A stretch of 64,000 bases of DNA from an uncultured Gemmatimonadales bacterium (GCA_963701965.1 OY969695.1:4896001-4960000); one strand, 5' to 3'. Shown: positions 19,161-64,000, counted from the first letter of the stretch. The notes: a model not told the origin generated them from the letters alone. Program-made: numbers and translations.

Positions 19161-19163
19161 ACG

Positions 19164-19192
19164 TTGACAAATCCCGTTGGCACAAATAGCCT
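19164..19192 (+). promoter_or_regulatory. Sigma70-type promoter for rplU-rpmA
   Basis: TTGACA (19164-19169), 17-nt spacer, TAGCCT (19187-19192); ATG begins 9 nt after the -10. Confidence 0.7.
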
Positions 19193-19200
19193 TACAGGCT

Positions 19201-35193: not shown

Positions 35194-35224
35194 CGTAGGG
35201 GCGCGGCCGTGCTCGCCGGTATGT
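35194..35224 (+). promoter_or_regulatory. Putative ECF promoter upstream of sigma copy 1
   Basis: CGTAGGGG-N12-CGCCGGTATGT, with identical boxes and spacing repeated at 35829-35859. Confidence 0.65.
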
Positions 35225-35255
35225 GACGTACGGCTCGTCTACCCCTGCTTCGCGA

Positions 35256-35822
35256 ATGACTCACGCCTGTGTAGCGGATCTGGACGTCGAACTCATCGCG
35301 CGCATCCGCGCCGGCGAAGAGGACGCCTTCGGGCAGCTCTTTCGCCGCTACTATAGACAGCTGTGTGCCTATGCGGCGCGCATCGATAGCGCCGGCGGAG
35401 CGGCCGAAGAGATCGTGCAGGAAGTGTTCTTCCGGATCTGGATGCACCGCGAGCGCCTGCAGCTCGTGGAGACCCTCGCCGGCTATCTCTACGCGATCAC
35501 CCGCAACGTCGCGCTCAATCGCGTGGCCCGGGCACGCACCGAGGGACGGTGGCGGGCCGGCGTCGAGCTCGACGTGCTCGATGTGCCCGTCGCATCGGCG
35601 GACGCCGATACCGCGATGCGTGAGACAGAGATGGCGATCGCCATCGACCGCGCCATCGGGCAGCTGTCGCCGCGGTGCCGGGAAGCGTTTCTGCTCCGGC
35701 GGCAGGGACACCTGAGCTACGCCGAGATCGCCCGACGGATGCAGACGACTCCGAAGACCGTGGAGAACCAGATCGCCAAAGCGCTGAGGCATTTGCGCAC
35801 GGCACTGGCCGACTGGCTCTAG
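35256..35822 (+). CDS. ECF sigma factor, FecI/PUL type (copy 1; start 35223 or 35256)
   Basis: AFGQLFRRYY, AEEIVQEVFFRIW, YLYAITRNVALN, LSPRCREAFLL..LSYAEIA..KTVENQIAKAL. Confidence 0.92.
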   Translation: MTHACVADLDVELIARIRAGEEDAFGQLFRRYYRQLCAYAARIDSAGGAAEEIVQEVFFRIWMHRERLQLVETLAGYLYAITRNVALNRVARARTEGRWRAGVELDVLDVPVASADADTAMRETEMAIAIDRAIGQLSPRCREAFLLRRQGHLSYAEIARRMQTTPKTVENQIAKALRHLRTALADWL

Positions 35823-35828
35823 CGCTGT

Positions 35829-35859
35829 CGTAGGGGTGTCGCACTCCGCGCCGGTATGT
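35829..35859 (+). promoter_or_regulatory. Putative ECF promoter for the fecR-susC operon (copy 1)
   Basis: CGTAGGGG-N12-CGCCGGTATGT; ATG at 35865 lies 34 nt after the T of TAGGGG. Confidence 0.65.
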
Positions 35860-35864
35860 ACGGC

Positions 35865-36938
35865 ATGGACTCGTCACCACCGTCGCGTTTCCGGCTCCTG
35901 ACGTCCGACCCTGATTGGGTGCTCGTCGAACGGTATTTCAGCGGCGAGAGCACGCCAGAGGAACGGCAGGCGATCGACGCCTGGGCCATGGCCGATCCCT
36001 CGCACGCGCGGCTCCTGGCGGGCATGCGGACCGTGTGGCGGGAGGCCGCCACGCCGTTGCCGGTCGTCGACGAAGCCGAGGCGTGGCGCGCGCTGCAGGA
36101 GCGATTGCGAGCGGCACCACTGCCGACGAAGCGCACGCGCATCCTTCCGGAGCATCCAGGGAGATCCTGGCGGGCAATGGCGGTCGCTGCCGGCCTCATC
36201 GCCGTGGGTATCGCGCTCACGGCCACTTGGCGGCGAGTGGAAACCGTGCGGTTGGCCGCTGCGCCACCGCGCATCTACGAGACGGCGCGTGGCGAGCGAT
36301 CGCAGGTGACGCTGGTCGATGGCACGCACGTGTGGCTCAACGTCGACAGTCGATTGGTCGTACCGGCGGCCTATGGGACGACGCGAGACGTGGCACTCAT
36401 CGGCGAGGCGTACTTCGTCGTACAGCACGACGCGCGCCGGCCGTTTCGTGTGCATGCGGGCACGGGGGTGATGGACGATCTCGGGACGGAGTTCGCCGTC
36501 CGCGCCTATCCGTCCGATACCAACACGGTCGTCATAGTCGCCGGGGGACGCGTCGGCATCCGACCCGCGGAGATCACGGCCAATCTCAGTGCCGCGCAAC
36601 TCGGCCGCGGGCAGATGGCGACGCTGGATCGGAGCGGGGCGGTCCAGGTGGTCGACCACGCGGATCTGGACACGTGGCTGGCATGGGTCGGCGGTCACCT
36701 CGCGTTCTCCGAGCGGCCCCTACGGGACGTACTGGGGGAGCTCGAACGGTGGTACGACATTCAATTCGCGGTCGACGACAGCACGCTTCTGACCGTCCCC
36801 ATCACGGCGGCGTTCACCTCGCAATCCGCGGACAATGCCATGGCGATCCTCGCCGGGACGCTCGGCGTGCCGTTCACGCGAGACGGGCGATACGTCCACA
36901 TCCACCACGCAGCCCAGCGCGGCGCGCTCAAGCCGTGA
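35865..36938 (+). CDS. FecR-family anti-sigma/signal transducer (copy 1)
   Basis: Single TM segment; TARGERSQVTLVDGTHVWLN, GEAYFVV.HD..RPF.V, LGTEFAV, LAF..PL..V..ELERWY. Confidence 0.93.
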   Translation: MDSSPPSRFRLLTSDPDWVLVERYFSGESTPEERQAIDAWAMADPSHARLLAGMRTVWREAATPLPVVDEAEAWRALQERLRAAPLPTKRTRILPEHPGRSWRAMAVAAGLIAVGIALTATWRRVETVRLAAAPPRIYETARGERSQVTLVDGTHVWLNVDSRLVVPAAYGTTRDVALIGEAYFVVQHDARRPFRVHAGTGVMDDLGTEFAVRAYPSDTNTVVIVAGGRVGIRPAEITANLSAAQLGRGQMATLDRSGAVQVVDHADLDTWLAWVGGHLAFSERPLRDVLGELERWYDIQFAVDDSTLLTVPITAAFTSQSADNAMAILAGTLGVPFTRDGRYVHIHHAAQRGALKP

Positions 36939-39900
36939 CGCCATTCGTGTGGGTGGTCGCGGGTATGGTGACTGGGATCGGACCAGTCTATGGGCAGGTG
37001 GTGTCGCCGGACAGCGCCCCCAGTGCCCAGACGGCGCCCGCTCCGGCGCGCGCCCGCGCGCACACGCCGCCGCTGGAACGGCGGGTGACGCTCGATCTGC
37101 AGAACGTCACGCTGCGCGAGGCGCTGCACGAGATCGACCGGCAGGCGAAGCTGGGCCTGGCGTTCACGCCGCTCATCGTGCCGGTCGACCGGCGCATCTC
37201 GATTCAGGCCGACAGCGTGACAGTGGCCAACGCTCTGGAGCGCGTGCTGCAGGGAACCAATGTGCGCGCGGTGGTCACGACCAGCGAGACGGTCATGTTG
37301 GTCAAGGACCGGGATCTGCGGTCTTCGGCGACCGATACTGGTGGGTATGCCATGGTGCTGGCGCGCGTCACCGATGACACGACGTCGAGGCCGCTCGTTG
37401 GAGTAGTCGTCGCGGTCAAAGGCACGAGCAACCAGGAGACCACGACCGACAAAGGCTATACACTCTTGCGGCGCGTGCCATCCGGGCTGCAAGTCATCAC
37501 CGCACGTTTCCTCGGCTACACGCCCGAGGAACGCCGCGTCGTGGTGCCCGACACCGGGTATGTGAACGTCTCGTTTCAGCTCAAGATGGGCGCGGCTCAC
37601 CTCCAAGAGGTTGTCACGACGGCGACTGGCCCGCGACGTCGTTACGAGTTGGCCAACGACATCACGATCCTCGATGCGGACTCGATCGTTCGCAACGAAC
37701 CGATTTCGAGCGTCACACAGTTGCTCGACGGTCGCGTGCCCGGGCTGACCGTGCAGCATACATCGGGTGCGCCAGGCGATCCGAGTCGCCTCCGACTCCG
37801 CGGGGTCAGTAGTGCGCTCGAATCGAACGACCCAATCGTCATTGTCGACAACGTGCGGGTCTATGCCGCACAGTCCGACTCGTTGAGCGGGAATCTCGCA
37901 ACGCTCCACGATCAAAGAGGCGCGAGCCTCACTATTCCCGGCAGCGGTGCCGGCAATTTAGGGAGCGTGGTCGGAGCGACGTCCGGCGCCCCGTCACCGC
38001 TGGATCAGATCGACCCCGGGAGTATCGAAACGATCGAGGTGTTGAAGGGGCCATCCGCCGCCACCCTGTACGGGCCCGATGCCGCGAATGGCGTGATCGT
38101 CATTACGACCAAGAAGGGTCACGCGGGTCCGGCGCGTTGGACGGCCGACGCGTCGCGCGGGATGTCGTCGATCCCCGGGCAATATCCACTGGGGTACTAT
38201 CGATTTGGCGTCGGTACGCAAAGCGACAACGTAAAGCTCTGCCCGTTGAGCAGTTCCCAGTGCACGGCCGACAGCCTCGTGCGCTTTCAAGCGCTCAATC
38301 ACTCTCAGTACTCCATTCTCCGTGATGGGGTGACCAACACGGGGAACATTGGCGTCTCGGGCGGCAGCGAGGTGCTGACGTACGCCGTCAACGGGGGCAT
38401 TGACGACGAACAGGGTGTGGTCGGTATGCCACCGGCCGAGATGGCCCTCTATCGGTCGACGCACGCTGGCAATGATCCACTCGGTTGGATGGTTCATCCG
38501 GAACAGCTGTCGCGATGGAGTGCGACGTCGCGCCTGGCCGCACGGCTCAGCGATCGTGCTGATGTGTCGATATCGGTAATGTTGACGCACGAAAACCAGC
38601 AGCGATCGGATCTCGAGCGAGAGCTGGGCGCGCTCATGACGACGTACGTCGATACCAGAAATAACCGGTACTGGTCGGCCTCTGGTCAGGGGTTGAGTCC
38701 GGTGGCCGACCCCCTACCCGATCTGTCGCAGCGGGTGACGGACGATGCCACCAATTTCACGAACTCTGCCAGTTTCAATTGGCGACCGTTGAACTGGCTC
38801 ACTACGAGCGCCAGCGTGGGCCTCAACGTCATTAGTCGACAGGACGACGCGCTCGTTCCGCAGGGTGTGCAGGCCATTAGTTCGGACCCCGCACTGGGGT
38901 CCATCAATGCCGATAGCGCCGGCACCCTCACCACCGCGCACGGATCGACGACGCAGTCCACCGTCAACATGCAGGTCGAGGCCAACGTACCGCTGTTCGG
39001 CGGCCTCCGCATGCAACTCGCCACGGGAGCGAACTACAGCGCGTCGGCGGTCTCGACGATCACGACATCGGCGGTCGGCCTCCTGCCCGGCAGTAACTCC
39101 CTTGTGGGCGCCCAGACGATCGCGCTCGCTACGCAAGCATCGAACAACCAAACCAGTTACGGCTGGTACCTCGCGCCAGACTTCACGTACCGGCATTTCG
39201 TGATCAACACCGGTCTGCGTCTCGATCAAAGCACGTCGTTCGGCAAGAACGCCCATCAGCCGCTCTTCCCGAAGCTCGGTGTGTCGTGGCTCGTGTCCGA
39301 AGAGAAATTCTTTCCGTTCAAGAAGATCTTCGACGCGTTCCGCGCGCGCGCGACCTATGGGCAGGCTGGCGTCTGGCCGTCGCCACAGCAGCAGCTGCGC
39401 CTCTATCAAACGACCAATCCGTTCCTCGACGGCGGCTTCCAGCCGGCGATCCAGCTCGCGACCCTCGGTAACAGTCAACTGCGGCCGGAGCGGTCGGAGG
39501 AGTTCGAGGGTGGTGTCGACGCGGATCTATTGCACGACTGGGTGTCGATCGGATTCAGCGGATATCGGAAGATGCGCTACGATGCGATCATGAACGTGCC
39601 GATCGCGCCGTCCGTCTATGCCGGCCAGTCGATCGCCGAGAACATTGGGGAGATCCGCAATACGGGCGTCGAAGCGAGTCTGATCACGCAACTTCTTCGC
39701 ACCGACCCGGTCTCGTGGAATGTGGCGGTCAATCTCAGCCGCAACTACAACGTCGTCGTGCGCCTTGGTCCGGGTGTTCAGCCGTTCGGGACGGACGACG
39801 CGCGCGTCCAGGCCGGGTATCCCGTATTCAGTCGGTGGGCGCGGCCGATTCTGGCGTACACGGATGCGAACCATGATGGCATCATCGAGCCGGACGAGGT

Positions 39901-50168: not shown

Positions 50169-50276
50169 TAGAGGAAACGGACTTCGTGTTGGTCTATTCC
50201 TAGGGGTATCAGATCATCACGGCAGGCAACGGCCTCGAGTATTGACAGCATTGGTACCGTTGCTTACAGATCTGTC

Positions 50277-50909: not shown

Positions 50910-50921
50910 CACATCCGCGGA

Positions 50922-50950
50922 TAGTGAAGTTCTCGGGGTCGCGTGTCTCA
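50922..50950 (+). promoter_or_regulatory. Putative ECF promoter for the fecR-susC operon (copy 2)
   Basis: TAGTGA-N12-CGCGTGTCTCA; GTG start lies 34 nt after the first T, the same geometry as copy 1. Confidence 0.45.
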
Positions 50951-50955
50951 TTGAC

Positions 50956-52059
50956 GTGGACAACGAAACCCCGGACCTGAGCGACCTACCGCTCGACGTC
51001 TTCGAGCGATTCCTCGCCGGTGAGTGTACGCCGGATGAAATAGCCCGCGTGCGGACGTGGGCCGCTGGTGTCACCGGCCATGCCAATGCCGCCCATCGGA
51101 TGCGCGAGGGAATTCGGTCACTCGACGCCGAAGCGCCGGCCGCCCTCAATGTCGACGCATTCCTCTCCGGGCTGCGCACCCGACTCAATTTGGCCCCGGC
51201 CCATCGGCGCGCGGCGCCTCGGTCGCGCACCTGGACGGGAGCCCCTGGCATCGCCACGCCACAACGGACCGGCTGGCGCATCGTACGAATGGCGGCCAGT
51301 GTCGCCGCCATCGGCCTTGGTGCGCTGACGGTGTGGCGCGCGGGCTGGGTCGGACCGACGCAACCGGTCCGCAATGTCGACAGTGCGCGCGGGAGTCGCA
51401 CCACCCTCACCCTGCGGGATGGGACGCGCATCGTGCTGGGGCCGGCGACGCATCTCGAGGTGCCGGAGGACTTCGGCCGCGCGACGCGAGAGGTCACGCT
51501 TTCCGGAGAGGCGCTGTTCACGGTCGTTCACGATCCTCGGCGGCCCTTCGCCGTCAAGACCCCGCGCATGACGACGCGCGATGTCGGGACGACGTTCGCC
51601 GTACGCGCGTACGCCGACGATGCCTACGAGCGCGTCGCAGTGGTCGAGGGAGCGGTCCAGGTGGCTGGCGCATCGCTCGCGGCGCACGACGTCGCGTTGG
51701 TCGACACATCCCGGCGTGTCACCATCGAGCGGGGGACTGATGTGGCGCCGTACCTGGCGTGGACACAGGCCACGCTGGTGTTTCGAGGGACCCCGTTCCG
51801 CGAGGCTGTTCGCGAGGTGGCGCGCACGCTCGATCTCGACGTGACCATCGCCGATTCGACCATCGGTCGGCAGCTCATCACCGGGTCGTTTGGCAATCAG
51901 TCCGTGGACGAGATTCTCGAGGCCATCACGCGGGTGGCGGGCGCGCACTTCGAACGGAAAGGCCGCGTCGTCGTGATTCGGCGCGGGGTGATGCCGGTCA
52001 GCCGACATGAGTCGCCGCGGAATGTGGAGCGGGTTACCATGAATGGACGCGGGTCATGA
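50956..52059 (+). CDS. FecR-family anti-sigma/signal transducer (copy 2)
   Basis: Single TM segment; LTLRDGTRIVLGP, GEALFTV.HDPRRPF.V, VGTTFAV, LVFRGTPF. Confidence 0.93.
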   Translation: MDNETPDLSDLPLDVFERFLAGECTPDEIARVRTWAAGVTGHANAAHRMREGIRSLDAEAPAALNVDAFLSGLRTRLNLAPAHRRAAPRSRTWTGAPGIATPQRTGWRIVRMAASVAAIGLGALTVWRAGWVGPTQPVRNVDSARGSRTTLTLRDGTRIVLGPATHLEVPEDFGRATREVTLSGEALFTVVHDPRRPFAVKTPRMTTRDVGTTFAVRAYADDAYERVAVVEGAVQVAGASLAAHDVALVDTSRRVTIERGTDVAPYLAWTQATLVFRGTPFREAVREVARTLDLDVTIADSTIGRQLITGSFGNQSVDEILEAITRVAGAHFERKGRVVVIRRGVMPVSRHESPRNVERVTMNGRGS

Positions 52060-55000
52060 GGTGGATTGGCACAGGCGGCGCGCTCATCGCGGCGTCGATC
52101 GCCTCGCAGTCGGCGCCCGCCCGAGCACAAGTCGTCCCGTCGTCGCTCGCGACGAGTGGGCAGCAGTGGCACCAGAACACCGACGTGCTCGCGAGGCGCA
52201 TCGCGCTCAAACTGGACCACGTAGCGCTGGCGGCGGCCCTGGATACGATCGCCTCCCGGGCGCACGCCCGCGTGGTCTATAGCTGGAGTGTGGTGCCGGT
52301 TTCGCAGACGGTGTCCTTGGTGGCGGACGCCATCACCGTGGAGGACGCGTTGACGCTCGTGCTGCGTCGGACCGGCGTGAAAGCCGTCGCCGGCACGAGC
52401 GAGACGATCATGCTGGTGAAGGACGAGGATCCCCGCTCCAGCAGCCCGGACACCGGAGCGCACGCGGAGGTGCTGGTGCGCGTGATGAACGATACGACGA
52501 CGCAACCGCTTGCGGGCGCCGTCGTGGGGCTCAAGGGGACCGACAAGCAAGAGATCACCGACGATCGGGGGTATGCCGCTCTCCTGCGCGTCCCGGCGGG
52601 ACTCCGGGTGATTACGGTGCGCTACCTCGGCTACACGCCCGATGAACGACGCATCGTCGCGCCTGACACCGGCTTCGTGACCGTCACCTTCGCGCTCAAG
52701 ATGGGAGCGGCGCACCTCCAGGAGATCGTCACGACCGCGACTGGCCCGCGCCGTCGCTACGAGCTGTCGAATGACATCACGATCCTGAATGCCGACTCGA
52801 TCGTCCGCAACGAACCGATCTCGAACGTCACCCAGATTCTCGATGGTCGTGTCCCCGGTCTGACGGTCCAGCATACATCGGGCGCGCCGGGCGATCCGAG
52901 CCGCTTGCGCCTCCGCGGGGTCAGTAGTGCGCTCGAGTCGAATGACCCAATCGTCATCGTCGATAACGTGCGGGTCTATGCCGCGCAGTCCGACTCGTTG
53001 AGCGGGAACCTCGCGGCTCTCCACAGTGCGGTGCTGCCGGGCATTCTCGGCATCCCCGGCGCCGCTAATACGAGTGTCGGGTCGACAGCCGGGGCCCCGT
53101 CGCCGCTCGATCAGATCGACCCAGGGAGCATCGAGACCATCGAGGTGCTGAAGGGACCTTCCGCCGCCACGCTGTATGGTCCCGATGCCGCAAATGGCGT
53201 CATCGTCATCACAACGAAGAAGGGTCACGCGGGTCCCGCGCGTTGGACGGCTGATGCGTCGCACGGGACATCGTCGATCCCCGGACAATATCCCGTGGGG
53301 TACTATCGGTTCGGCGTCGGCTCGGCAACCGATGACGTCAGGCTTTGTCCGTTGAGCGACCCCAGTTGCACGGCCGATAGTCTTGTGCGTTTCCAAGCGC
53401 TCAACCATTCCCAGTACTCCATTCTCCGGAGTGGCGTGACGAACACTGGGAACGTCGGTGTCTCGGGCGGCAGCGAGGCGCTGACGTACGCCGTCAACGG
53501 GAGTATTGACGACGAACAAGGGGTGGTGAACATGCCACCGTCCGAGATGGCTCTCTACCGGTCCATGCACGATGGCGATCAGCCACTCGGGTGGATGATC
53601 CATCCCGAGCAGCTGTCGCGATGGAGCGCCACGTCTCGCCTGGCTGCGAAGCTGAGCGATCGTGCCGATGTGTCGCTCTCGGTGATGTTGACGCACGAAA
53701 ACCAACAGCGATCCGATCTCGAGAGCGAACTGGCCCCGCTCATGACCACCTACATCGATCGCAAGAACAACCTGTACTGGCAGGCCAATGGGTCAGGATT
53801 GAGTCCGGTGAGCGACCCCCTGGCAGATGCGTCGCAGCGCGTCACCGACGATGCCACGAATTTCACGAACTCCGCCAGTTTCAGTTGGCGTCCGTTGAAC
53901 TGGCTCACGACTAGTGCCAGTGTGGGGCTCAACGTCATCAGTCGGCAGGATGACGCCCTGGTTCCACAGGGTGTGCAGGCAATCAATACGAACAACGAGC
54001 AAACGAACGCCGACAGCGGCGGCACGCTCACCACCGCGCACGGATCAACAACGCAAACCACGGTCAACATGCAGGTCGAGGGTAATGTGCCGCTGTTCGG
54101 CGGCCTCCGCATGCAGTTGGCCACGGGAGCGAATTACAGCGCTGCGGCGGTATCAACTATTACGACATCGGCGATCGGTCTCCTCCCGGGCAGCAACTCG
54201 CTCGTGGGCGCGCAGGCCATCAGGTTGGCCACGCAAGCCTCGAACAACCAAACCAGTTACGGCTGGTACCTGGCGCCGGACTTCATGTACCGGCACTTCG
54301 TCATCAATACCGGTCTGCGCCTCGATCAGAGTACATTGTTCGGCAAGAACGCCCATCAGCCGCTCTTCCCGAAGCTTGGCGTGTCGTGGCTCCTCTCCGA
54401 AGAGCGGTTCTTTCCGTTCAAGAAACTGTTCGACGCCTTCCGCGTGCGCGGGGCGTACGGGCAGGCGGGCGTCTGGCCGTCGCCACAGCAACAACTGCGC
54501 CTCTACCAGTCATTCAATCCGTTCCTCGACGGTGGCTTCCAGTCAGCGACCCAGCTCACCACCATTGGCAACAGTCAACTACGGCCGGAGCGGTCGGAGG
54601 AGTTCGAGGGCGGTGTCGACGCCGACCTGCTTCACGACTGGGTGTCGGTCGAATTCAGTGGCTATCGAAAGATGCGCTATGACGCGATCCTGAACGTGCC
54701 GGTCGCGCCGTCTGTGTTCGCCAACCAGTCGATCGCCGAAAACATTGGGGAGATCCGCAACACCGGCGTCGAAGCGACTCTAATCACGCAGCTCCTTCGC
54801 ACCGATCCGGTCTCGTGGAACGTGGCGGTCAATCTGAGCCGTAACTACAACGTGGTCGTGCGACTCGGTCCGGGCGTCCTGCCATTCGGCACGGACGACG
54901 CGCGCGTTCAGGCCGGATATCCGCTCTTCAGTCGGTTTGCGCGGCCCATCCTGGCGTACACGGATGCGAATCACGACGGCATCATCGAGCCGGACGAGGT

Positions 55001-55508
55001 GCTCGTCGGTGACTCGCTGGTCTATATGGGCGCGAGCGATCCGAGCTACACCGTCGGGATGCACAGCCAGATGTCCTTTTTTCGAGGCGCGGTGTCCGTG
55101 TCGGCCGACTTCGAGTACCAGGCCGGCCTGACGCAGCTCAACGGACCGCTGGGATCGGCTGGACAGTTGGTGTTCTCGCCGGGGAGCAGTGACCCGCACG
55201 CGCCGTTCTCGGAGCAGGCGGCCGCCGCTGTGTTGAACGAGACGGACTATGGAGCCATTCAGCGCGTGAGCACGTTCCGATTCCAGAGCCTCTCGGTCGC
55301 CTACCACCTCCCGAGGACAGTCGCGCGCTGGCTCATGCGAGCGGCGGATGTGTCGGTGGCGCTCCAGGGCACGAATCTCGGGTTGTTCACGAACTACAAG
55401 GGAAAGGACCCAGACGTGAACACGTACTCGACGGGCAATCAACTCATCAATGGCGGTGTCGTGCCGCAACCGCGCGTGTGGATCGTCAGAGTCAATGCGG
55501 CGTACTGA
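52056..55508 (+). CDS. SusC/RagA-like TonB-dependent transporter with N-terminal signalling domain (copy 2)
   Basis: Signal peptide ending ARA-Q; same plug signature IEVLKGPSAATLYGPDAANGVIVITTKKG; same C-terminus WIVRVNAAY. Confidence 0.93.
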   Translation: MRWIGTGGALIAASIASQSAPARAQVVPSSLATSGQQWHQNTDVLARRIALKLDHVALAAALDTIASRAHARVVYSWSVVPVSQTVSLVADAITVEDALTLVLRRTGVKAVAGTSETIMLVKDEDPRSSSPDTGAHAEVLVRVMNDTTTQPLAGAVVGLKGTDKQEITDDRGYAALLRVPAGLRVITVRYLGYTPDERRIVAPDTGFVTVTFALKMGAAHLQEIVTTATGPRRRYELSNDITILNADSIVRNEPISNVTQILDGRVPGLTVQHTSGAPGDPSRLRLRGVSSALESNDPIVIVDNVRVYAAQSDSLSGNLAALHSAVLPGILGIPGAANTSVGSTAGAPSPLDQIDPGSIETIEVLKGPSAATLYGPDAANGVIVITTKKGHAGPARWTADASHGTSSIPGQYPVGYYRFGVGSATDDVRLCPLSDPSCTADSLVRFQALNHSQYSILRSGVTNTGNVGVSGGSEALTYAVNGSIDDEQGVVNMPPSEMALYRSMHDGDQPLGWMIHPEQLSRWSATSRLAAKLSDRADVSLSVMLTHENQQRSDLESELAPLMTTYIDRKNNLYWQANGSGLSPVSDPLADASQRVTDDATNFTNSASFSWRPLNWLTTSASVGLNVISRQDDALVPQGVQAINTNNEQTNADSGGTLTTAHGSTTQTTVNMQVEGNVPLFGGLRMQLATGANYSAAAVSTITTSAIGLLPGSNSLVGAQAIRLATQASNNQTSYGWYLAPDFMYRHFVINTGLRLDQSTLFGKNAHQPLFPKLGVSWLLSEERFFPFKKLFDAFRVRGAYGQAGVWPSPQQQLRLYQSFNPFLDGGFQSATQLTTIGNSQLRPERSEEFEGGVDADLLHDWVSVEFSGYRKMRYDAILNVPVAPSVFANQSIAENIGEIRNTGVEATLITQLLRTDPVSWNVAVNLSRNYNVVVRLGPGVLPFGTDDARVQAGYPLFSRFARPILAYTDANHDGIIEPDEVLVGDSLVYMGASDPSYTVGMHSQMSFFRGAVSVSADFEYQAGLTQLNGPLGSAGQLVFSPGSSDPHAPFSEQAAAAVLNETDYGAIQRVSTFRFQSLSVAYHLPRTVARWLMRAADVSVALQGTNLGLFTNYKGKDPDVNTYSTGNQLINGGVVPQPRVWIVRVNAAY

Positions 55509-56997
55509 GCGCCAGGTGTCGACGATACGCGTCGCCTCGCCTGCCGTGCAGATCATCGTGCGGCTCGTCTACGGATCGCTGTTCGCCGGCCTGGCGGCGT
55601 GTCAGGTCGCCACCGATCCGCTCCCGGCCGGTGTCCCCGATCCCAGCACGACGCGCACTCCGTCGGGTGCGCAAGACGTCTACGAAGGTGCTCTGGCCAC
55701 GCTGCGCAACGCCTTTGCGGGCGCGGGAGATGCGTTCGTGCCGACCACCGGGTTGCTCACCGATGAACTCGAAACAGGTGACATTGGCGAGCTGTCGTTG
55801 ATCACACCGGGAACGGTGGTCGACAGCCGAATCTTGCCAGAGTACACGGGCACGGGCACGGACAACGTCACCCCCAGCACGATCGTCGAAATCTATGGTC
55901 TCTTGCAGAATACGCGCGCCGAGGCTCGACAAGCCCGTGGGTACCTCCATGCCTATGCGCCGCAAGCGCCCAAGGCGCTGACTGGGCATATGTATGCCGT
56001 CGAAGGCTATGCCGACGTGTTCCTCGCCGACCTATTCTGCTCGGGCGTCCCACTCAGCACGCTCGATTTCGGCAAGGATTTCACGTACCAGCCCGGATCG
56101 TCGACGCAAGATGTGTATGAGCGCGCGGTCACGTACTTCGACTCCGCGCTGACGCTGGTCGCCGACAGCAACCGTATTCTCAATCTGGCGCGGATGGGGA
56201 AGGGACGGGCCCTCCTGGCGCTTGGTCAGTACGCTCAGGCCGCCGCCGCGGTCGCCCAAGTGCCCGACGGCTACCAGTACGCGCTGCAGTTCAATGGGAC
56301 GGCTACATCAACTAGTGGCGGCGCCCCCATGTCCAACCAGAACTTCGTGACCCCGACCTTCAATGCTGGCTATGCCCCTGGAATCGGAGGGCTCACGATG
56401 GTGGATCGAGAAGGCGGAAACGGTCTTCCCTTTCTCTCGAGGGGCGATCCGCGCTCCGTAGGGACGGCGAACGGGTTCAACGACTTCGGGGTCCCAATGT
56501 TCCGACCGCTGATGTACGACATCACCGGAGACAGCCCGGTGATCATGGCCAGCGGGATCGAAGCGCGACTGATCGCCGCCGAGGCGGCGCTCCAAGCGGG
56601 TGGCAACGGTTGGCTGACGACGTTGAACACCCTGCGGACCGACGGCACGCTTGCGACGCAGCCGGATGGCACCGATCCGACCAAGACCGACACGGTATGG
56701 AATGCCGGCAGCGGCGGCGTCGCGGGACTGGCGCCGCTCCGTGATCCGGGCACCGTGCCCGCCCGCGTGACGATGCTGTTCACGGAACGCGCCTACTGGT
56801 TGTTTCTCACGGGCCATCGTCAGGGCGATCTGCGCCGTCTCATTCGGCAGTACGGTCGCGCCGAGACGCTGGTGTATCCGGTCGGAGCGTACACGGGGGC
56901 CTTCGACGCCTATGGCACTGACGTGACCGCACCCATTCCCGGCGCCGAGCGGCTCAGCAATCCGCTGTTCAAGGGCTGCCGCAGCCGAGGAGCCTGA
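55495..56997 (+). CDS. SusD/RagB-like lipoprotein (copy 2; start could be a GTG at ~55546-55558)
   Basis: Lipobox LAAC; paralog of 40395-41867. Confidence 0.82.
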   Translation: MRRTERQVSTIRVASPAVQIIVRLVYGSLFAGLAACQVATDPLPAGVPDPSTTRTPSGAQDVYEGALATLRNAFAGAGDAFVPTTGLLTDELETGDIGELSLITPGTVVDSRILPEYTGTGTDNVTPSTIVEIYGLLQNTRAEARQARGYLHAYAPQAPKALTGHMYAVEGYADVFLADLFCSGVPLSTLDFGKDFTYQPGSSTQDVYERAVTYFDSALTLVADSNRILNLARMGKGRALLALGQYAQAAAAVAQVPDGYQYALQFNGTATSTSGGAPMSNQNFVTPTFNAGYAPGIGGLTMVDREGGNGLPFLSRGDPRSVGTANGFNDFGVPMFRPLMYDITGDSPVIMASGIEARLIAAEAALQAGGNGWLTTLNTLRTDGTLATQPDGTDPTKTDTVWNAGSGGVAGLAPLRDPGTVPARVTMLFTERAYWLFLTGHRQGDLRRLIRQYGRAETLVYPVGAYTGAFDAYGTDVTAPIPGAERLSNPLFKGCRSRGA

Positions 56998-57002
56998 CTG
57001 CC

Positions 57003-58044
57003 ATGGCCTGGCGTCCGCCGTCACCCAATCACCTGGTCGCGATGCTTGCGCTCACCGTCGCGGCGTGCGCGACCGATACGCCGTATGCGCCGCCACCGGT
57101 GACGGATCCCACGAAACTCTACTGGTCACTGACGCTCAATCATCGGGCCGTCTTGCTTTCAACGGTGGCGCCGTACGACACCATTCGACTGGTCGCCACG
57201 CCGCGGACCATCAAGGGCGTTCCCATCGCGGGGCTTCCGGCGCCCACGTTCACGTCGCTTGACCTGCAGAACGTGCAAGTCAGCACCACGGGGCTGGTAC
57301 ACGCCATTGGCACGGGCACGCAATTCACCGTGGTCGTGTCAATGTCGGTCGGCAATGACACGCATGCGGACACGGCGATCATCAATGTCACCGACACGAC
57401 GCCGCCACCCGTGCTCAGCCGGTTCACGATTCATCCGGGATCCGGAGACAGCGCGAAGACGGCCGCCGATATCGAAGTGTCCATTCCCGGGGTGGGGATC
57501 GATCCCGTCGGAGACACCATCCAGAATCTCTCCATCTACTACGCGACCGCAGATTCCAACGTCGCGAACATCAGTCGCGCCGGGGTGCTGACACCGAACC
57601 GACCAGGTCATGTGACGGTGTATGCGACGACGACGGCGTACGGGATCACGAAGGTGGATACGCTGCCGTACACGATCGGGTATTCCATCTTCGCCGGGAT
57701 CCAAATCGCAGCGGAGCCCAACGCCGCCGGCAAAACCGTCGGCGTGTTTACGCCGAGCAGTGTTCTCGTCGGTCCGGGGGCCACCATCATTTTCGAGAAT
57801 CTGTCCGGTCCACTCACGGACGTCACGTTCAATGATCCGACGCACGTCATGCAGAGATGACGCCGCCTGCGCCGAGCATGTGTGGTGGTGTGGCTCCGGC
57901 AACATTCCGGCGTTCGCCAACGATCCCACCGACACGACCGGTTCGAAGCAGGATCGCATTCGCGTATTCCCCGTCCCGGGCACGTACAAGTTCCACAGCA
58001 CGATCTCCGGATCCTCCGGCTCGGTCGTCGTGATGAAACAATGA
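57003..58044 (+). pseudogene. Ig plus cupredoxin-like lipoprotein (copy 2), +1 frameshift at ~57855
   Basis: ATGCAG-A-GATGAC here versus ATGCAGGATGAC in copy 1; the C-terminus continues in ORF 57622-58044. Confidence 0.78.
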
Positions 58045-59673
58045 GTGCGCATTCGATGGACTCGTTCCTCACACGGCGTGGTTTCCTCAGAACCAGCGCC
58101 ATGGCGGCGGCGGTGGCCGCGGTGCCCAGCCGTATCGTGCGAGGAGTCCCCGAGGCGAGAGCTATTCCACCGATCGAGGATCCACGCACCGCCGAGTTGG
58201 CCGCGCGCGGGCTCGAGAGCGCGCGCGGCACCGGCGCGGGCTACGCCGACGTCCGTCTGACTCACACCCGGACGCGACGATTCCAAGCGATCGTCGTCGA
58301 GGACGAGGAGGACATGGAGGTCGGCGTACGCGCGCTCGTGGACGGGTACTGGGGATTCGCCAGCGGACCCGTGTGGAGCCCGGACGAGATGGCGCGCCTC
58401 GGTCGCGAGGCCGTGCATCAAGCCAAAGTCAATACCCTCGGCAAGCCGCGCAATGTGACCCTAGCGTCGGCGGCGGTCGTGCAGAGCGCGCACTGGGCCA
58501 CACCGGTCCAGATCGATCCGTTTGGGTTGTCGCCATTCGAGATTCAGGACTATCTCGCCGCCATGCAGATCTGGACCGAGGAGTACGGCATTCAGGGGGT
58601 GGTCAGTCAGATGTACGCCGTCGTCCAGGATGTAGCCTTCTCGTCGACGATCGGGAGCTATTGCACACAGCGCCGATACTGGACGGAGGGGACGTTGTCT
58701 GGCGCGGTGCGCGTCGGCAACGAGCGGGGCGGGGTCTCGCTGGCGTGCCTTTCGCGGGCGGGTATGGGGTGGGAGCTGTTCACCGCCGATCGCATCCCGC
58801 GCGTGCGCGATCACGCCTTGCGCGACGAGGTCCGCCTCCGCGCGGAGGAGGCGCGCGCGCTCCTTCGCCTGCCGCTCAAGCCCATCAATGTCGGGCGCTA
58901 CGATGCCGCCGTCGACGCCACGAGCATGGCGCGAGTAGTCAATGCGACGCTCGGTCGCGCCACCGAGTTGGACCGTGCACTCGGGTACGAAGCCAATGCG
59001 GGCGGCACCAGCTATCTGTCGGATCCATTGGGGATGATCGGACACTACCAGGCCGGCGCTCCCCTGTTGACCGTGACGGGCAATCGATCGGAATCCGGTG
59101 GGGCCGCTACGGTGCGGTGGGACGACGAGGGGGTGGCCCCGGACGATTTCTTGCTCGTCAAGAACGGCGTCCTCACCGACTTCCAGACCACGCGCGAAAG
59201 CGCGACATGGATGGGCGGGTCAGCCGTCGGCGACCGGTGCCCACGCGCGGTCACACGGGTGTGCCAATGCGCCCTCGGCGGTGTACGCCGCCATGACCCA
59301 CACGCCAAACCTCGTCATGGCGCCGGGGGCGTCCGGGGACTTCGAGACAATGGTCAGTAGCGTGACCAATGGTCTGGCCATCTCGGGGGCCAATCTCGAG
59401 ATGGACTTTCAAGTGGCAACCGGGTTCGGGACGGGGACGGTCGTTGCCGTCAAGCAGGGGAAGCGGGTGGCGCGCTTATCGGGTGCGGGGTTCCTGTTCC
59501 GATCGACCGAGTTCTGGAAATCACTCGTGGCGATCGGCGGCGAGACGTCGCTGCGCCGGGTGGGCCTGGCAGCGCAGAAGGGTGAGCCGCCGCAGCTGTG
59601 TTATCACAGCGTCACGGCGCCGCCCGCGGTCGTCAAGGGGCTCACGCTCATCGACCCGTTGAGGAAAGCATGA
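58041..59673 (+). pseudogene. Tat-signal TldD-family protein (copy 2), +1 frameshift near 59214
   Basis: TRRGFL Tat motif; split between ORFs 57882-59360 and 59098-59673; collinear with copy 1. Confidence 0.8.
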
Positions 59674-61115
59674 GCCGGGGACGTGATCGATTGATTCGAC
59701 TCAATGACGCGGATCGGATCCTGTCTCGCGAGGAATGCGCGCGCATCGCCCGCCGGACCTTCGATTTCGCGCGCGGCGGCGGAGAGTGCCGCATCGGGAT
59801 CTTCTCGTGGTGGAACGGTGAGCTGCGGTGGGCGCGCAATCGCGTGGCGCTGGCCAGTGATCGCCGGGACATCCGGATCGAGGTCGGCCGGTTCGTCGGC
59901 GTGGGGCAAGGCCAGGCGACGACGAACCAGCTCGACAATGAGTCGCTCGAGTCCGCGGTGCGGGCCGCGGAGCGGAACGCCCGGCACTTTCCACTCATTC
60001 TGCGTCGCCCAATGCTGCTCCCGCCCATTCCCGTGGCCGCGCCCCCGCAGACAGCGATCTGGAGCGACGCGACGTATGCCGTGACGCCGGAAGTGCGGGG
60101 CGAGGTGGCGCGGACGCTGGTGGCGAACGCGGAAGCGAAGGGGATGCAGTCGGCGGGGTACATCGAAATGCGCGCGGGCGCGCAGACGCTCCTGAGCTCG
60201 GAGCGGATGGACGCGCCGGCGCCGTGGGACGTCCCCTACGCGGCGTGGACACAGGCGCAATGCTCAATGACGGTGCGGAGCCCGGACGGTACGGGGTCGG
60301 GCTGGGCGGGTCTTTCGGGCCATGACTGGGCGCGGATCGATGGCGCCGGGCTGGCGCAGCGTGCGCTCGACAAGTGTCTCACCTCGCAGCATCCGGTGAC
60401 GCTCGAACCCGGGCGGTACACGGTGATCCTGGAGCCGCAGGCCGTCGCCGATTTGTGGGAGCTGGTCGTGGACTCTATGCCGCGGGTTATCGCGGAGATG
60501 GGCCAGGGGCCCTGGGCGTTGGCGCCGGACGAGGCGCTCAACCTGTGGCGCACGAAACTGGGGCTCAAGGTCATGGACGAACGCATCACGGTGGACCACG
60601 ACCCGGCGGACCCGGAACTGGGTATCGTGCCCTCGGCGTGGATGGAGCCCGTGCGCTGGATCGATCGCGGCGTGCTGACGACGCTCGCGTACGATCGGGA
60701 CTATGCGCTGGCGAACTTGAAAACCAACGCGCCACGGCGGGGGATGGTGGGGTACCGCATGAGTGGCGGCGAGACCTCGATGGAGGAGATGATTCGGACC
60801 ACCACGCGCGGATTGCTCGTCACCCGGCTCTCGAATGTGCGACTGTTGGATCAGACCAGTCTTCTGGCCACGGGGTTGACCCGGGATGGGCTGTGGTTGA
60901 TCGAGCATGGCCAGATCTCGAAGGCCGTCAAGAATCTGCGCTTCACCGAATCTCCGTTGTTCGCGTTCTCGAGCATCGAGCAGCTTGGGGTTCCGGTGCC
61001 GGTGTTCCGCCCGGTCAAGGACCCGTATGAGCAATTCGCGCCGTTGACCCCGGCGATCGTGCCGGCGCTCAAGGTGCGCGACTTCTCCTTCACGTCGACG
61101 ATCGATGCGATATAA
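59670..61115 (+). CDS. TldE/PmbA-family protein (copy 2, intact, no signal peptide)
   Basis: ATGA overlap; DGTGSGWA, EPGRYTVILEPQAV, IDRGVL, TGLTRDG, AVKNLRFTES. Confidence 0.88.
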   Translation: MSRGRDRLIRLNDADRILSREECARIARRTFDFARGGGECRIGIFSWWNGELRWARNRVALASDRRDIRIEVGRFVGVGQGQATTNQLDNESLESAVRAAERNARHFPLILRRPMLLPPIPVAAPPQTAIWSDATYAVTPEVRGEVARTLVANAEAKGMQSAGYIEMRAGAQTLLSSERMDAPAPWDVPYAAWTQAQCSMTVRSPDGTGSGWAGLSGHDWARIDGAGLAQRALDKCLTSQHPVTLEPGRYTVILEPQAVADLWELVVDSMPRVIAEMGQGPWALAPDEALNLWRTKLGLKVMDERITVDHDPADPELGIVPSAWMEPVRWIDRGVLTTLAYDRDYALANLKTNAPRRGMVGYRMSGGETSMEEMIRTTTRGLLVTRLSNVRLLDQTSLLATGLTRDGLWLIEHGQISKAVKNLRFTESPLFAFSSIEQLGVPVPVFRPVKDPYEQFAPLTPAIVPALKVRDFSFTSTIDAI

Positions 61116-62508
61116 CCGCGGCGGCGGCACGGCCCTCGCGGCGATGAGTGCCATTATTACAGCCAGTGCTCAGGGACAGACGCGATTTCAGTGGCCGGAC
61201 ACGAGCGTGGATGTCGCGCGCTACTCCAGCGTTGGTGAATGCCTGGGTGCCGTTCGACGCGTTCAGGCCAACGTGGAGCGCAATGAGGCATTGACCGTCG
61301 CGCGGGACACCATACCGCGAGACCCGGCACGCAGCCTTCAGCCGGCCCCGGCCGTGGTGACTGAGACGGCGACCCGGTGTGCGGCCCACATCTCGCCACG
61401 CACCGTCGATCTGGCCGAGTTCCGCTGGACCATCCCGCTCTTGCTGGCAGCCGGCCGGGATAGCGATGTCGCGGTCTTGATCGAGCGGAAACTGGCGCTG
61501 GTCCCCCCCACGGACGCGCGGGTGCGCGAGAGCGTCGTCGACAGCGCGGTTGATCTCTATCTGGACGCGCGGCCGGTGCGTCTGGCGGCGGCCGAAACGT
61601 TTCTGGTGCGGCGGGCCCGTGGCGGCGCGGATCGTATCGAACGCCTCAAGACGTACGACAAGCTGCGTAACGTGAGTCATCAGGATGGCGATACGGCACG
61701 CGCGCGGCGCGTCGCGCGCTGGGTGATCGGCGTGGCCGACTCCCTCACCCCGGTGGAGCGCCAGTCGCAGGCCTACGCGGAGCTGGACGTCGGGAATGGT
61801 GGCGACCTGCTGATCTACGCCGCGGAAGAGGAGCTGACGGGCCTGACCCCGCTGCTCGATAGCCTTCGCCACAGTACCGCGGCGTTCGCGGCCCTCGAAA
61901 ACGATCTCCTGCGTCGGGCGTCAGGCGGCCAGCCGGACAAGCTCCTGCCCATCGGACGACCCTCTCCGCCGCTCGCCGCTGATTGGTGGTTTCCGGCTGT
62001 CGCGGGGACCGTGCATCGGCCGACGCCGGGTCGGGTGACGTTCGTCAGCTTTCTCACTTTCCCGCAGTGTGTGGGGTTGTCCGAAGATAGCTACAGCGGC
62101 TCGTGTAATAGTGAACTGGTACGGCTCCGGCGACTCGCGCGTCGGTTTCCCAATGTCGACATCACGATCGTCGCGTCGACCCAAGGCGGCTTCATGTATC
62201 TGCCGCCAATGGCGCCGGCCGCCGAGGCCTCCTGGATCGCGCAGTGGGTCGACGTGTTTCATGTGCCGAACGTGGTCGTGGCCGTCGACTCGACGCCGTT
62301 CTGGCGTCTCCCGGATCCGGACGGGCGGCGGATCAACAAGGACGTGCCAGGTCTTGTGGTCCACCGGTACGGTCTCTGGCGACCGGAGCAGTCCGGTCGG
62401 ATGCTCGTCGACGAAAATGGCCTCATTGTCGACGTCCTGCATGTGAACGACGAGGACGAGTTGATGCAGTTCATTGACGCGCTGGTTCATCGCCACCGTA
62501 CGAGCTGA
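61105..62508 (+). CDS. Secreted protein with C-terminal thioredoxin/TlpA-like fold (copy 2, intact)
   Basis: Signal peptide; IGRPSPPL..W..PGRVTFVSF, C-X11-C, ELVRLRRLARRF..V.I, MLVDENGLIV. Confidence 0.65.
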   Translation: MRYNRGGGTALAAMSAIITASAQGQTRFQWPDTSVDVARYSSVGECLGAVRRVQANVERNEALTVARDTIPRDPARSLQPAPAVVTETATRCAAHISPRTVDLAEFRWTIPLLLAAGRDSDVAVLIERKLALVPPTDARVRESVVDSAVDLYLDARPVRLAAAETFLVRRARGGADRIERLKTYDKLRNVSHQDGDTARARRVARWVIGVADSLTPVERQSQAYAELDVGNGGDLLIYAAEEELTGLTPLLDSLRHSTAAFAALENDLLRRASGGQPDKLLPIGRPSPPLAADWWFPAVAGTVHRPTPGRVTFVSFLTFPQCVGLSEDSYSGSCNSELVRLRRLARRFPNVDITIVASTQGGFMYLPPMAPAAEASWIAQWVDVFHVPNVVVAVDSTPFWRLPDPDGRRINKDVPGLVVHRYGLWRPEQSGRMLVDENGLIVDVLHVNDEDELMQFIDALVHRHRTS

Positions 62509-62510
62509 TC

Positions 62511-64000
62511 ATGTACTTGCGCGCGTTGTTCCAGTACGGTGCCCTCGTGTCGCTCGGATTCATGTCGGCGCCCGCATCGCGGGATCCGGCGCTGACGGTT
62601 GGCACGCTGCCGAACGGGCTCCGATACTACCTGCGCCCCAACCACCTACCGGCGCACCGGGTGGAGCTGCGTCTCGTAGTCAATGCGGGCAGTGAGCTGG
62701 AAGATCGCGACCAGCAAGGGTTCGCGCACTTCCTCGAGCACATGGCGTTCGAAGGCACGACGCATTTCCCGGGGCATGCGTTGCTCGATTTCATCGAGAC
62801 GAGCGGGATGCGATTCGGGGCCGATCTGAACGCAATGACCACGCCGGACGAGACGATCTACACGCTGACGCTGCCGTCGGATGACCCGCACATCGTCGAG
62901 CGAGGCTTCCAAGTGCTGGAGGATTGGGCGGGGGGCGGGATCCTCATCGACTCGGCCGCCGTCGTTGGGGAGCGCGGGATCATCATGGGGGAGTGGCGCT
63001 CCCGATTACCGGATTCGGCCAGCCGGACCGTGCAGGCGCACTACGACACGCTGTATTTGGGCCATTCGCGCTATCTGTCGCGGAAGCCGATCGGGGATAC
63101 GGCGCTTATCCAACACGCCACGCCGGGGCCGATCCGGCGTTTTTATCGGGACTGGTACCGGCCCGAGCGCATGACCGTCGTGGTCGTGGGCAATGTCGAT
63201 GCGTCGGCTATAGAGCGGGAGATCCGTCAGAACTTCGGTGGCATTAAGGCGGCCGCGCCGGCGCGTCAACCGCCGGCGGTGGGGCTCCCATCGCGGCCAT
63301 CGCCCGAGATCGACGTGTATCGAGGGAAGGTGGAGCCCGAGGTGGAGCTGCAGTGGCCGCTGGCCACGACGCCCCCGGACGCGCTGGCTGCGGTCAAGCA
63401 GCAGATCCTACATGACATCATCGCCTCCACCGTCACGACGCGCCTCCTCGATATCCGCACCCACCCCTCACGCCCGTTCATTAGCGCTGATTTGGATCAA
63501 GGGCGCCTCATCCGCCCGATCGCCATCGAGGCGCTCTCGGTCATCACGTGGCCTGATAGTCTGGAGCGCGGCTTCGGGGCCGTGTACACGGTGCTAGAGG
63601 GCATCGCCCAACACGGCATCCCGGCGGCCAGTCTCGCCCACGAGAAGGCGGTGCTCCTGGCGCGCCTGGAGCACGCGGCATCGGGCGAGATGGGCCGGTC
63701 GTCGGCCGCCTATGCGGACGCCTACGTCGATCATGCGCTGACTGGCGAGGGATCGCTCCTGAGCGCCGCGCAAGAGCTGGGCTATGCGCGGCCGGTCCTG
63801 GCCGCGCTGACCCCCGACGACCTGGCGCACGTCGTCCGCCAATGGCTGGATCCCGCGCGATCGCGCCTCGTCATCCGGCTGCCGCTGACGGCGCACGTGG
63901 CCACCCCGACCCGGGCCCGGATGCTCGCCCTGATCGACTCGCTCGCCCGCACGCCGCTCCCGCCTGATAGCGATCGCGCCGCCTCCGGCGGACCGCTGCT
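62511..64000 (+). CDS. M16 family zinc peptidase (copy 2, 3'-partial)
   Basis: ATG at 62511; TLPNGLRYYL, HFLEHMAFEG; runs off the window collinear with 47367-50168. Confidence 0.9.
   Translation, partial: MYLRALFQYGALVSLGFMSAPASRDPALTVGTLPNGLRYYLRPNHLPAHRVELRLVVNAGSELEDRDQQGFAHFLEHMAFEGTTHFPGHALLDFIETSGMRFGADLNAMTTPDETIYTLTLPSDDPHIVERGFQVLEDWAGGGILIDSAAVVGERGIIMGEWRSRLPDSASRTVQAHYDTLYLGHSRYLSRKPIGDTALIQHATPGPIRRFYRDWYRPERMTVVVVGNVDASAIEREIRQNFGGIKAAAPARQPPAVGLPSRPSPEIDVYRGKVEPEVELQWPLATTPPDALAAVKQQILHDIIASTVTTRLLDIRTHPSRPFISADLDQGRLIRPIAIEALSVITWPDSLERGFGAVYTVLEGIAQHGIPAASLAHEKAVLLARLEHAASGEMGRSSAAYADAYVDHALTGEGSLLSAAQELGYARPVLAALTPDDLAHVVRQWLDPARSRLVIRLPLTAHVATPTRARMLALIDSLARTPLPPDSDRAASGGPL

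Follow-up and report, generated by a model that had tools for sequence, protein, structure and literature searches.

The DNA analysed here is a stretch of 64,000 nt (the window) from an uncultured Gemmatimonadales bacterium (GCA_963701965.1, OY969695.1:4896001-4960000) with a single-contig genome of 5.12 Mb. Two co-oriented blocks of nine genes lie in tandem at 35223-50168 and from 50277 to ~65314, the second ending outside the window such that its M16 gene extends ~1.3 kb past the window end. Each block, referred to here as a cassette, encodes in order an extracytoplasmic function (ECF) sigma factor, a FecR-type anti-sigma factor, a SusC transducer, a SusD-like lipoprotein, a further lipoprotein, a TldD-like protein (TldD*), a TldE-like protein, a thioredoxin-fold protein (X), and an M16 peptidase. 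The features are as follows.

35195..35220, +: candidate ECF promoter GTAGGGG-N12-CGCCGGT upstream of ECF1 (predicted function)
35223..35822, +: ECF sigma factor copy 1 (Pfam Sigma70_r2 and r4_2; TIGR02985 above cut-off; alternative start ATG at 35256)
35830..35855, +: second occurrence of the candidate ECF promoter, immediately 5' of fecR1
35856..36938, +: FecR-type anti-sigma factor copy 1 (Pfam FecR, FecR_C)
36935..40408, +: SusC/RagA-family TonB-dependent transducer with STN, copy 1 (TIGR04056, 382.6 bits against a cut-off of 368.25; STN, plug, barrel)
40395..41867, +: SusD-like lipoprotein copy 1 (position, lipobox, weak profile match to 3SNX)
41873..42913, +: lipoprotein copy 1, Ig-like region and plastocyanin-like domain without copper ligands (Big_2; plastocyanin profile match)
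42915..44522, +: Tat-signal pseudo-TldD (TldD*) copy 1, frame intact (dead site at aa 295-300, nt 43797-43814)
44519..45965, +: TldE/PmbA-like protein copy 1, no signal peptide (frameshift near 44780-44885)
45955..47364, +: X copy 1, helical domain and TlpA/ResA-like fold without CxxC (frame breaks near 45978 and 46410; fold taken from copy 2)
47367..50168, +: exported M16 zinc peptidase of PqqL/FusC type, copy 1 (HFLEH and distal Glu intact)
50277..50909, +: ECF sigma factor copy 2 (uncertain start; 37% identity with copy 1)
50956..52059, +: FecR copy 2, 33% identical to copy 1
52056..55508, +: SusC copy 2, 80% identical (TIGR04056 above cut-off)
55495..56997, +: SusD-like lipoprotein copy 2, 84% identical
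57003..58044, +: Ig/cupredoxin-like lipoprotein copy 2 (frameshift near 57854)
58041..59673, +: TldD* copy 2 (site reads NATLGR; frame broken near 59214-59340)
59670..61115, +: TldE-like protein copy 2, intact
61105..62508, +: X copy 2, intact (predicted docking of residues 30-55 onto TldD* residues 155-175)
62511..64000, +: M16 copy 2, HFLEH intact (continues to window-equivalent ~65314; two frameshifts beyond the window end)

An original prediction made from the sequence alone had described two tandem, co-oriented nine-gene blocks, and Pfam and NCBIfam scans together with the translations confirm them. Junctions from fecR through M16 are as tight as claimed, with overlaps of 4-14 nt or gaps of 1-5 nt. 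The export signals predicted for all cargo except TldE are also present (called by eye, without SignalP): Sec signals on SusC, X, and M16, lipoboxes on SusD and the lipoprotein, and a twin-arginine translocation (Tat) signal on TldD, with a Pfam TAT match in copy 2. SusC has STN, carboxypeptidase-regulatory-like, plug, and barrel domains, and the proposed STN-FecR-ECF signalling chain is intact. No families of carbohydrate-active enzymes (CAZymes) were found among the 25 window proteins scanned with Pfam, again as predicted. Between the two copies, identity is 80-95% for the structural genes but only 37% and 33% for ECF and FecR, and DNA similarity begins at 37280, near the end of the STN-coding part of susC. 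There are ~25 SusC-like loci in the genome, and the nine-gene block is present at only two of these.

Seven single-base frame breaks are present in five genes: in copy 1, one in TldE and two in X; in copy 2, one each in the lipoprotein and TldD and two in M16. Each of the five is unbroken in the other block, leaving exactly one intact version, and no breaks occur in ECF, FecR, SusC, or SusD of either block. A uniform method gives 6 true breaks in the 27 kb of cassette, after exclusion of a seventh call as an N-terminal artefact, and 5 in 74.5 kb of background (78 genes), a roughly threefold excess that is borderline (binomial p ~0.05). One background break lies near position 516690 of this genome in a conserved gene that, from a reading of its sequence, we take to be clpB, and a frameshift in such a gene suggests residual indel errors in the assembly. 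The breaks may reflect assembly error, in part or whole, or complementary decay after duplication.

A TldD-like pseudo-protease and its neighbours

In E. coli TldD the metal ligands are C454 and the two histidines of the HExxxH motif (H262, H267), E263 acts in acid-base catalysis, and E270, D272, and K456 are structural residues that tether the clamp (PMC5810440, Ghilarov 2017). At this site the window proteins have DATLGR (copy 1) and NATLGR (copy 2), and active paralogues have HESVAH or HESIGH. An intact HExxxH is found in 0/2 window copies, 0/20 loci, 0/45 scored copies from two cassette-rich genomes (G184 and G089, see below), and 0/120 database homologues, these sets being overlapping and one G184/G089 fragment having been left unscored. 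The third ligand position is Ala in window copy 1 and Cys in none; 8/25 G184 copies and 1/120 homologues have Asp there, and all of these Asp-bearing proteins lack the histidine pair. The structural residues are retained, with an invariant Asp equivalent to D272, and Glu/Gln and Lys equivalent to E270 and K456 kept wherever aligned. The fold is that of E. coli TldD (5NJ5; Foldseek E 1.7e-22 with a query model of predicted local distance difference test [pLDDT] score 63; profile E 3.5e-8), and a 69-row profile on 5NJ5_A places HEAVGH opposite 'sktiGa' of TldD*. A PDB search with a single TldD* sequence gave no match, and a 19-row profile gave weak matches only.

As judged from these alignments, the cassette TldD is a pseudo-protease that has lost its zinc site while retaining the fold. 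The earlier view that TldD/E process peptide N-termini does not survive this, as metal ligands and catalytic Glu are gone from every scored cassette copy; an active N-terminal trimmer is rejected on the loss of HExxxH and on the alignment register. The two stand-alone Tat-TldDs of this genome retain HESxxH, and the TldDs at 20/20 further loci, picked from lower-scoring matches, all retain the motif. A quick unrooted tree has one long branch that splits 36 dead from 27 active TldDs (SH-aLRT 100). The stand-alone Tat-TldDs (L028, L029, L122-L141), which keep HExxxH, have Asp, Gly-Ala, Gly-Asp, or Asn-Gly at the third-ligand position and frequently form two tandem TldD/TldE pairs.

In the fetched G184 and G089 regions, TldE is encoded next to TldD* in 71 of 72 cases. 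Of the proteins scored, 69/70 TldD* and 0/70 TldE carry a twin-arginine motif, and TldE is therefore likely to be exported by the Tat pathway together with TldD*.

X was predicted to be thioredoxin-like, and the fold stands: residues 280-462 match the TlpA/ResA-like protein 3GL3 (Z 14.5, root mean square deviation 2.5, 135 aligned residues), in a search made with residues 262-467 only. The redox role does not, with CxxC present in 1 of 69 rows and 17 rows having no Cys at all in that stretch; a disulfide reductase is rejected on this loss. Look-alikes of X in the Atlas include Acidobacteriota clusters, which we note as a lead only. Complex modelling had been proposed with the original prediction, and TldD* copy 1 paired with X copy 2 (both intact) scores 0.67, and the highest-scoring of 3 controls 0.00. 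The threshold applied is reached by 116/157 solved complexes and 2/215 mismatched pairs, counts that are approximate with custom alignments. Contacts agree at least 83% from run to run, partner pLDDT is at least 76, and in the predicted interface residues 30-55 of X, its most conserved stretch, contact TldD* residues 155-175. The model supports binding of X by TldD*; we know of no solved TldD-type complex with a thioredoxin-fold partner.

The C-terminal domain of the lipoprotein matches plastocyanin by profile (E 8e-5, aligned to 1PCS), and the type-1 copper-ligand pattern (His/Cys/His/Met) is present in 0/23 and 0/43 homologues, on which loss a copper protein is rejected. Three enzyme-like or metal/redox-like folds of the cassette (TldD*, X, and the lipoprotein domain) are thus all empty of ligands by alignment. 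The SusD assignment rests on position, lipobox, and a weak profile match to the solved SusD-like protein 3SNX (E 0.0012); no Pfam or NCBIfam match to SusD was found in either scan. This lipoprotein has two Cys residues that are invariant across 49 rows. All 9 matches to solved relatives of SusC are SusC/RagA proteins and include both glycan and peptide transporters.

Distribution, expansion, and the terminal peptidase slot

Neighbourhood comparison had been set beforehand as a test of the unit, and synteny is conserved: the gene order is the same in 24/24 related GTDB loci, as far as the contigs reach, and every locus with a taxonomic name (23/24) belongs to the Gemmatimonadota. Together with kinship tables this puts the source organism in the Gemmatimonadaceae. 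An X profile matches 8/401 genomes in a phylum sample, and 11/11 X homologues with a taxon name are from Gemmatimonadaceae. TldD matches at E <=1e-130, a range that held dead copies wherever inspected, occur in 17/401 genomes of a family sample, a lower bound in that only 3 candidates were scored per genome; G255 carries an additional, weaker-scoring dead copy. A threshold of 1e-110 also catches active TldDs, and its tally of 247/401 genomes is not a cassette count. Genomes of the family sample marked as unpublished contribute only to its denominator.

Copy number is extreme in two genomes, G184 (5.3 Mb, 96% complete, 1% contamination) with 137 matches at E <=1e-20, one of which is an active-type TldD, and G089 (3.3 Mb, 98% complete, 1% contamination) with 79. 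G405 shares coordinates with G184 and is counted once, with 132 matches at <=1e-100. Other genomes have 1, 4, 10, and 15 matches, and the same-genus genomes G072 and G074 have only 12-13 SusC matches each. In the regions fetched as match-rich (800 kb from G184, 400 kb from G089) the cassettes form head-to-tail arrays on long contigs. Among the 72 TldD* genes there, 61 have SusC/SusD upstream (57 with the full ECF-FecR-SusC-SusD set), 71 have TldE downstream, and 69 have X downstream. Cassettes make up roughly 30% of each expanded genome, a figure extrapolated from ~12.4 kb per block and not a census. GC content is 54% in the fetched regions of G184 and 44-45% in those of G089, compared to ~67% in this window. 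A leuC gene is present in G184 and G089, and G000, G072, and G074 have none above cut-off.

The gene following X is variable among paralogues. In the first set of loci it encodes M16 in 10 of the 11 that reach that far; in G184 it is M13 in 26/49, M16 in 6/49, and M28 in 1/49, and in G089 M13 and M16 each occupy 1/20. M2, M14, S15, and Met-zincin peptidases adjoin other cassette copies. The window M16 matches PqqL (6OFS) over its full length (E 7.7e-65). The HxxEH motif is intact in 7/7 and 11/11 M16s, as is HExxH in 34/34 M13s. The M13s are exported, PepO-related proteins of ~490 aa missing ~200 residues of the second domain, and are possibly of an open-access neprilysin type; such compact M13s in G184 (e.g. 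L058 12542-13999, - strand) are sometimes in tandem pairs. In several cassettes the gene after an M13-M13 pair encodes an exported protein that resembles alpha/beta hydrolases but has no clear Pfam assignment (L052 11144-12442, L053 7638-8975, L054 4233-5525, and L081 1145-2455).

The core of the cassette is therefore eight genes, and the last slot holds an exchangeable exported zinc peptidase with intact motifs, or is empty. The order of the proposed nine-gene unit is kept; M16 lies outside the invariant core and is not obligatory, the slot holding M13, M16, another peptidase, or none. That unrelated families of exported zinc peptidases occupy the same slot suggests that the ligand is a peptide or protein. 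The 55 neighbouring or control ORFs (open reading frames) scanned, a subset of those available, contained no glycoside hydrolase.

Several other genes lie near the cassettes. An operon, or part of one, of MoxR AAA+, DUF58, BatA, and DUF4159 genes is located just past the window end in the genome (L001 6783-13725), and also flanks cassettes in L005, L008, L009, L024, L025, L087, L089, L091, L093, and L096. The idea that TldD* arose from an active TldD encoded in such an operon is not supported, as MoxR/Bat genes are present at 0/22 active-TldD loci within the fetched flanks. Upstream of the cassettes, and divergent from ECF1, is a gene for a 251-aa membrane-anchored protein of no known family (34230-34985, - strand), which has four copies in the genome, two of them flanking another ECF-SusC-SusD locus at 3.32 Mb. 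Further upstream are an exported S41-like peptidase (32715-34217, + strand) with a 75% paralogue at 2.20 Mb of the genome, and an ADOP-family duplicated permease (29995-32376, + strand). The gene at 18102-19349 (- strand) encodes a protein that combines two carboxypeptidase-regulatory-like domains with a TonB plug but lacks a barrel.

Signalling parts and modular evolution

Pairwise-identity matrices were compared over 37 (G184) and 19 (G089) complete cassettes; shared descent alone would lift all correlations, and the signal is the contrast between groups. Matrices correlate well within SusC/SusD/lipoprotein (rho 0.74-0.93) and within TldD*/TldE/X (0.75-0.88), and less so between these receptor and periplasmic groups (0.32-0.42 in G184, 0.54-0.76 in G089). 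ECF correlation is close to zero with every other gene and that of FecR is at most 0.29. The STN domain tracks FecR_C (rho 0.51 and 0.53, permutation p 0.002) rather than its own barrel (0.09, 0.14), and in pairs whose barrels average 80% identity the STN and ECF sequences are 25% and 32% identical, the same as in unrelated pairs. These identity comparisons divide the cassette into three modules that evolve separately among the paralogues, namely the receptor, periplasmic, and signalling parts. The contrast of the signalling module suggests either module replacement or very fast divergence, which the matrices do not separate.

The 5.1 Mb genome has exactly two occurrences of the motif GTAGGGG-N12-CGCCGGT, one ahead of ECF1 and the other ahead of fecR1. 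It is paired at both places in L024 also, whose ECF is 73% identical, and was seen by eye in L013 and L015. A test for such private promoters over the paralogues gave 11.1 for cognate and 10.9 for non-cognate combinations (p 0.01), with the cognate strictly best in 2/58. Private promoters general to all copies were rejected on weak or null tests, and the proposal is kept only for window copy 1, L024, L013, and L015. A sigma-70 promoter and terminator scan gave nothing above shuffles. The E. coli-type Fur box, a consensus that may not be the phylum's own, is not enriched relative to shuffles upstream of 38 G184 and 19 G089 ECF genes, and its best match in the window copies is 9/19 positions.

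A putative polypeptide importer and its alternatives

The cassette resembles three kinds of known system by analogy: ECF-controlled polysaccharide utilization loci (PULs), here aimed at polypeptides, ButCD loci, and Fus/PqqL systems. It falls outside the TldD/E protease family, PULs in the strict sense, and the Fus family. PULs of Bacteroidota with ECF/anti-sigma control have the same receptor and signalling chassis (SusC with STN, SusD, and surface lipoproteins) and many paralogous loci per genome, whereas the cassette is in another phylum, has no CAZymes, and carries the fixed TldD*/TldE/X trio and a terminal peptidase. It has the tandem susC/susD pair, and the STN-FecR-ECF regulator known from one PUL subtype, but not the CAZymes of the strict definition. 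The ButCD and other peptidase-linked SusCD loci of B. fragilis, and RagAB, likewise have a zinc metalloprotease next to SusCD and lack glycan genes, and ButCD imports a small protein (PMC11467351). Such loci are few in Bacteroides fragilis (4/59 in strain GS077), and the excerpted description makes no mention of Tat-exported pseudo-TldD/E or a thioredoxin-fold adaptor (PMC11467351). Fus/YddB-PqqL systems share with the cassette a TonB-dependent transporter and a periplasmic two-domain M16 (PMC6071955, PMC6793856), although FusA is distant from SusC (PMC6793856); the cassette differs in its SusC-type receptor and SusD lid, its dedicated ECF/FecR, the replaceability of M16 by M13, and the lack of an inner-membrane transporter, and a PqqL/FusC-like M16 with HxxEH is present in only part of the cassettes. 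With E. coli TldD/TldE (5NJ5; PMC5810440) it shares the fold, the adjacent tldE, and the structural Glu/Asp/Lys tether, but it has lost the metal ligands and catalytic Glu, has a Tat signal and a predicted third subunit X, and is encoded in uptake operons.

No description of the system was found in the literature searched, which was thin on subscription journals and did not include supplements, and the gene-cluster tables of PMC6793856 could list such loci. SusCD with ECF control and protease-linked import are known; the periplasmic pseudo-protease module and the extreme expansion are undescribed in that literature.

On balance we favour, by a modest lean, the interpretation that the cassette is an inducible importer of a peptide or protein through a non-catalytic periplasmic cage, with each copy likely importing a single peptide or small protein. 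At the surface, a specific polypeptide would be captured by SusC, SusD, and the accessory lipoprotein, as expected from SusCD biology. The STN domain of SusC would then signal via FecR, freeing the ECF sigma factor to transcribe its own operon, a step suggested by the presence of the parts, the STN-FecR co-variation, and the paired promoter motif in a few copies. TldD* and TldE, likely exported together by Tat, may form a hollow shell that lacks a catalytic metal, and X would serve as an adaptor by docking on TldD* as the complex model predicts. Active TldD/E is a closed shell with a cleft and channel that binds peptide backbones independently of sequence (PMC5810440), and the dead shell could bind the entering unfolded chain uncut, acting as a ratchet or holding cage. 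The ratchet idea derives from the Brownian ratchet proposed for protein import by FusC (PMC6071955), and SusCD with zinc-protease loci import a protein elsewhere (PMC11467351). An exported M16 or compact M13, encoded in the cassette or shared in trans, would presumably digest the cargo. Repeated duplication together with rewiring of STN-FecR-ECF would generate a repertoire of separately inducible receptors.

Several observations weigh against this importer. Neither copy in this genome has a full set of intact frames, and a stricter test for private promoters over the paralogues found no difference. A peptidase is present in only 2/20 G089 cassettes and 17/49 in G184 have no M13 or M16 beside X, so that digestion must frequently occur in trans or be absent. 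A nutritional need is not shown: hisD, leuC, argH, and trpB are all above cut-off in both expanded genomes, and amino-acid auxotrophy is not supported by these four markers. If binding is independent of sequence, it is unexplained why each receptor has its own periplasmic trio, and the TldD*-TldE-X trio also occurs without SusCD, in 11/52 cases in G184 and in G445 and G479, where the trio and a distant M16 directly follow MoxR-DUF58-BatA-DUF4159. The closest solved relatives of SusC, being glycan and peptide transporters alike, do not favour a polypeptide.

Other explanations account for parts of these data. The cassettes could serve metal or cofactor piracy, importing a metalloprotein or peptidic metallophore from which a peptidase releases the metal in a Fus-like manner. 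FecI/FecR-type signalling is classic for iron carriers and is in line with this. The window M16 is also PqqL/FusC-like, and PqqL is iron-regulated (PMC6793856), but the absence of Fur-box enrichment (with the caveat that the box of this phylum may differ), the lack of ligands in all three metal/redox folds, and the lack of an inner-membrane transporter in the cassette make this unlikely. Surveillance or defence, in which each copy senses a foreign RiPP (a peptide made on ribosomes and modified after translation), bacteriocin, or antimicrobial peptide, traps it in the dead cage, and has it destroyed for no nutritional gain, would explain why prototrophic genomes have 80-130 diverged receptors and why signalling parts are strictly unshared even among near-identical receptors; active TldD/E does process RiPP precursors (PMC5810440). 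We regard it as quite unlikely, given that TonB-dependent channels are exploited by toxins (ButCD, PMC11467351), making import-to-destroy costly, and that no immunity or resistance gene is present among the scanned neighbours.

Three further possibilities are less attractive. SusC, SusD, a surface lipoprotein, and ECF are the standard PUL chassis, and the cassette could act on glycans or other non-peptide polymers with hydrolases located elsewhere and the peptidases as passengers; the best solved SusC match, 8AA4, is described only as a 'SusC homolog', and a few copies end in an exported alpha/beta hydrolase. This is improbable, as neither the window block nor the 55 further ORFs contain a glycoside hydrolase, and unrelated peptidase families substitute for each other in one slot. 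TonB-dependent protease secretion has reportedly been seen in Myxococcus, and TldD*, TldE, and X might chaperone a cargo such as the peptidase outward through SusC, for which three pseudo-enzymes would be suitable and with which the MoxR-DUF58-BatA-DUF4159 operon beside the cassette in 11 loci or genomes is consistent. However, SusD lids and STN-FecR signalling face inward-bound ligands, and 18/20 G089 cassettes have no candidate cargo peptidase, so we think export very improbable. Hardly probable at all is that a block of little function was amplified selfishly or neutrally, as suggested by the patchy distribution, the extreme copy number in two genomes, and the frameshifts in this window; the G184 and G089 copies are open over nearly their full length, share 26-48% mean identity, and retain conserved cores, and there is no transposase or integrase within the unit.

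A stronger form of the importer proposal, which we put forward tentatively and doubt as a whole, is that ~30% of some Gemmatimonadota genomes constitutes 80-130 separately wired peptide or protein receptors, each feeding a dead TldD/TldE 'pencil sharpener' shell that, with its thioredoxin-fold adaptor, threads and holds polypeptides rather than cutting them, the duplications being insulated by exchange of the STN-FecR-sigma module at a junction within susC. Database labels of 'TldD protein' on these pseudo-proteases inflate peptidase counts for the Gemmatimonadota. If the importer proposal is correct, the cassettes would represent a new non-catalytic use of the TldD/E shell and a protein-directed counterpart, outside Bacteroidota, of PUL expansions, and their >100 sigma/anti-sigma/STN channels per cell would provide an unusually large natural set for studying the insulation of signalling after duplication.

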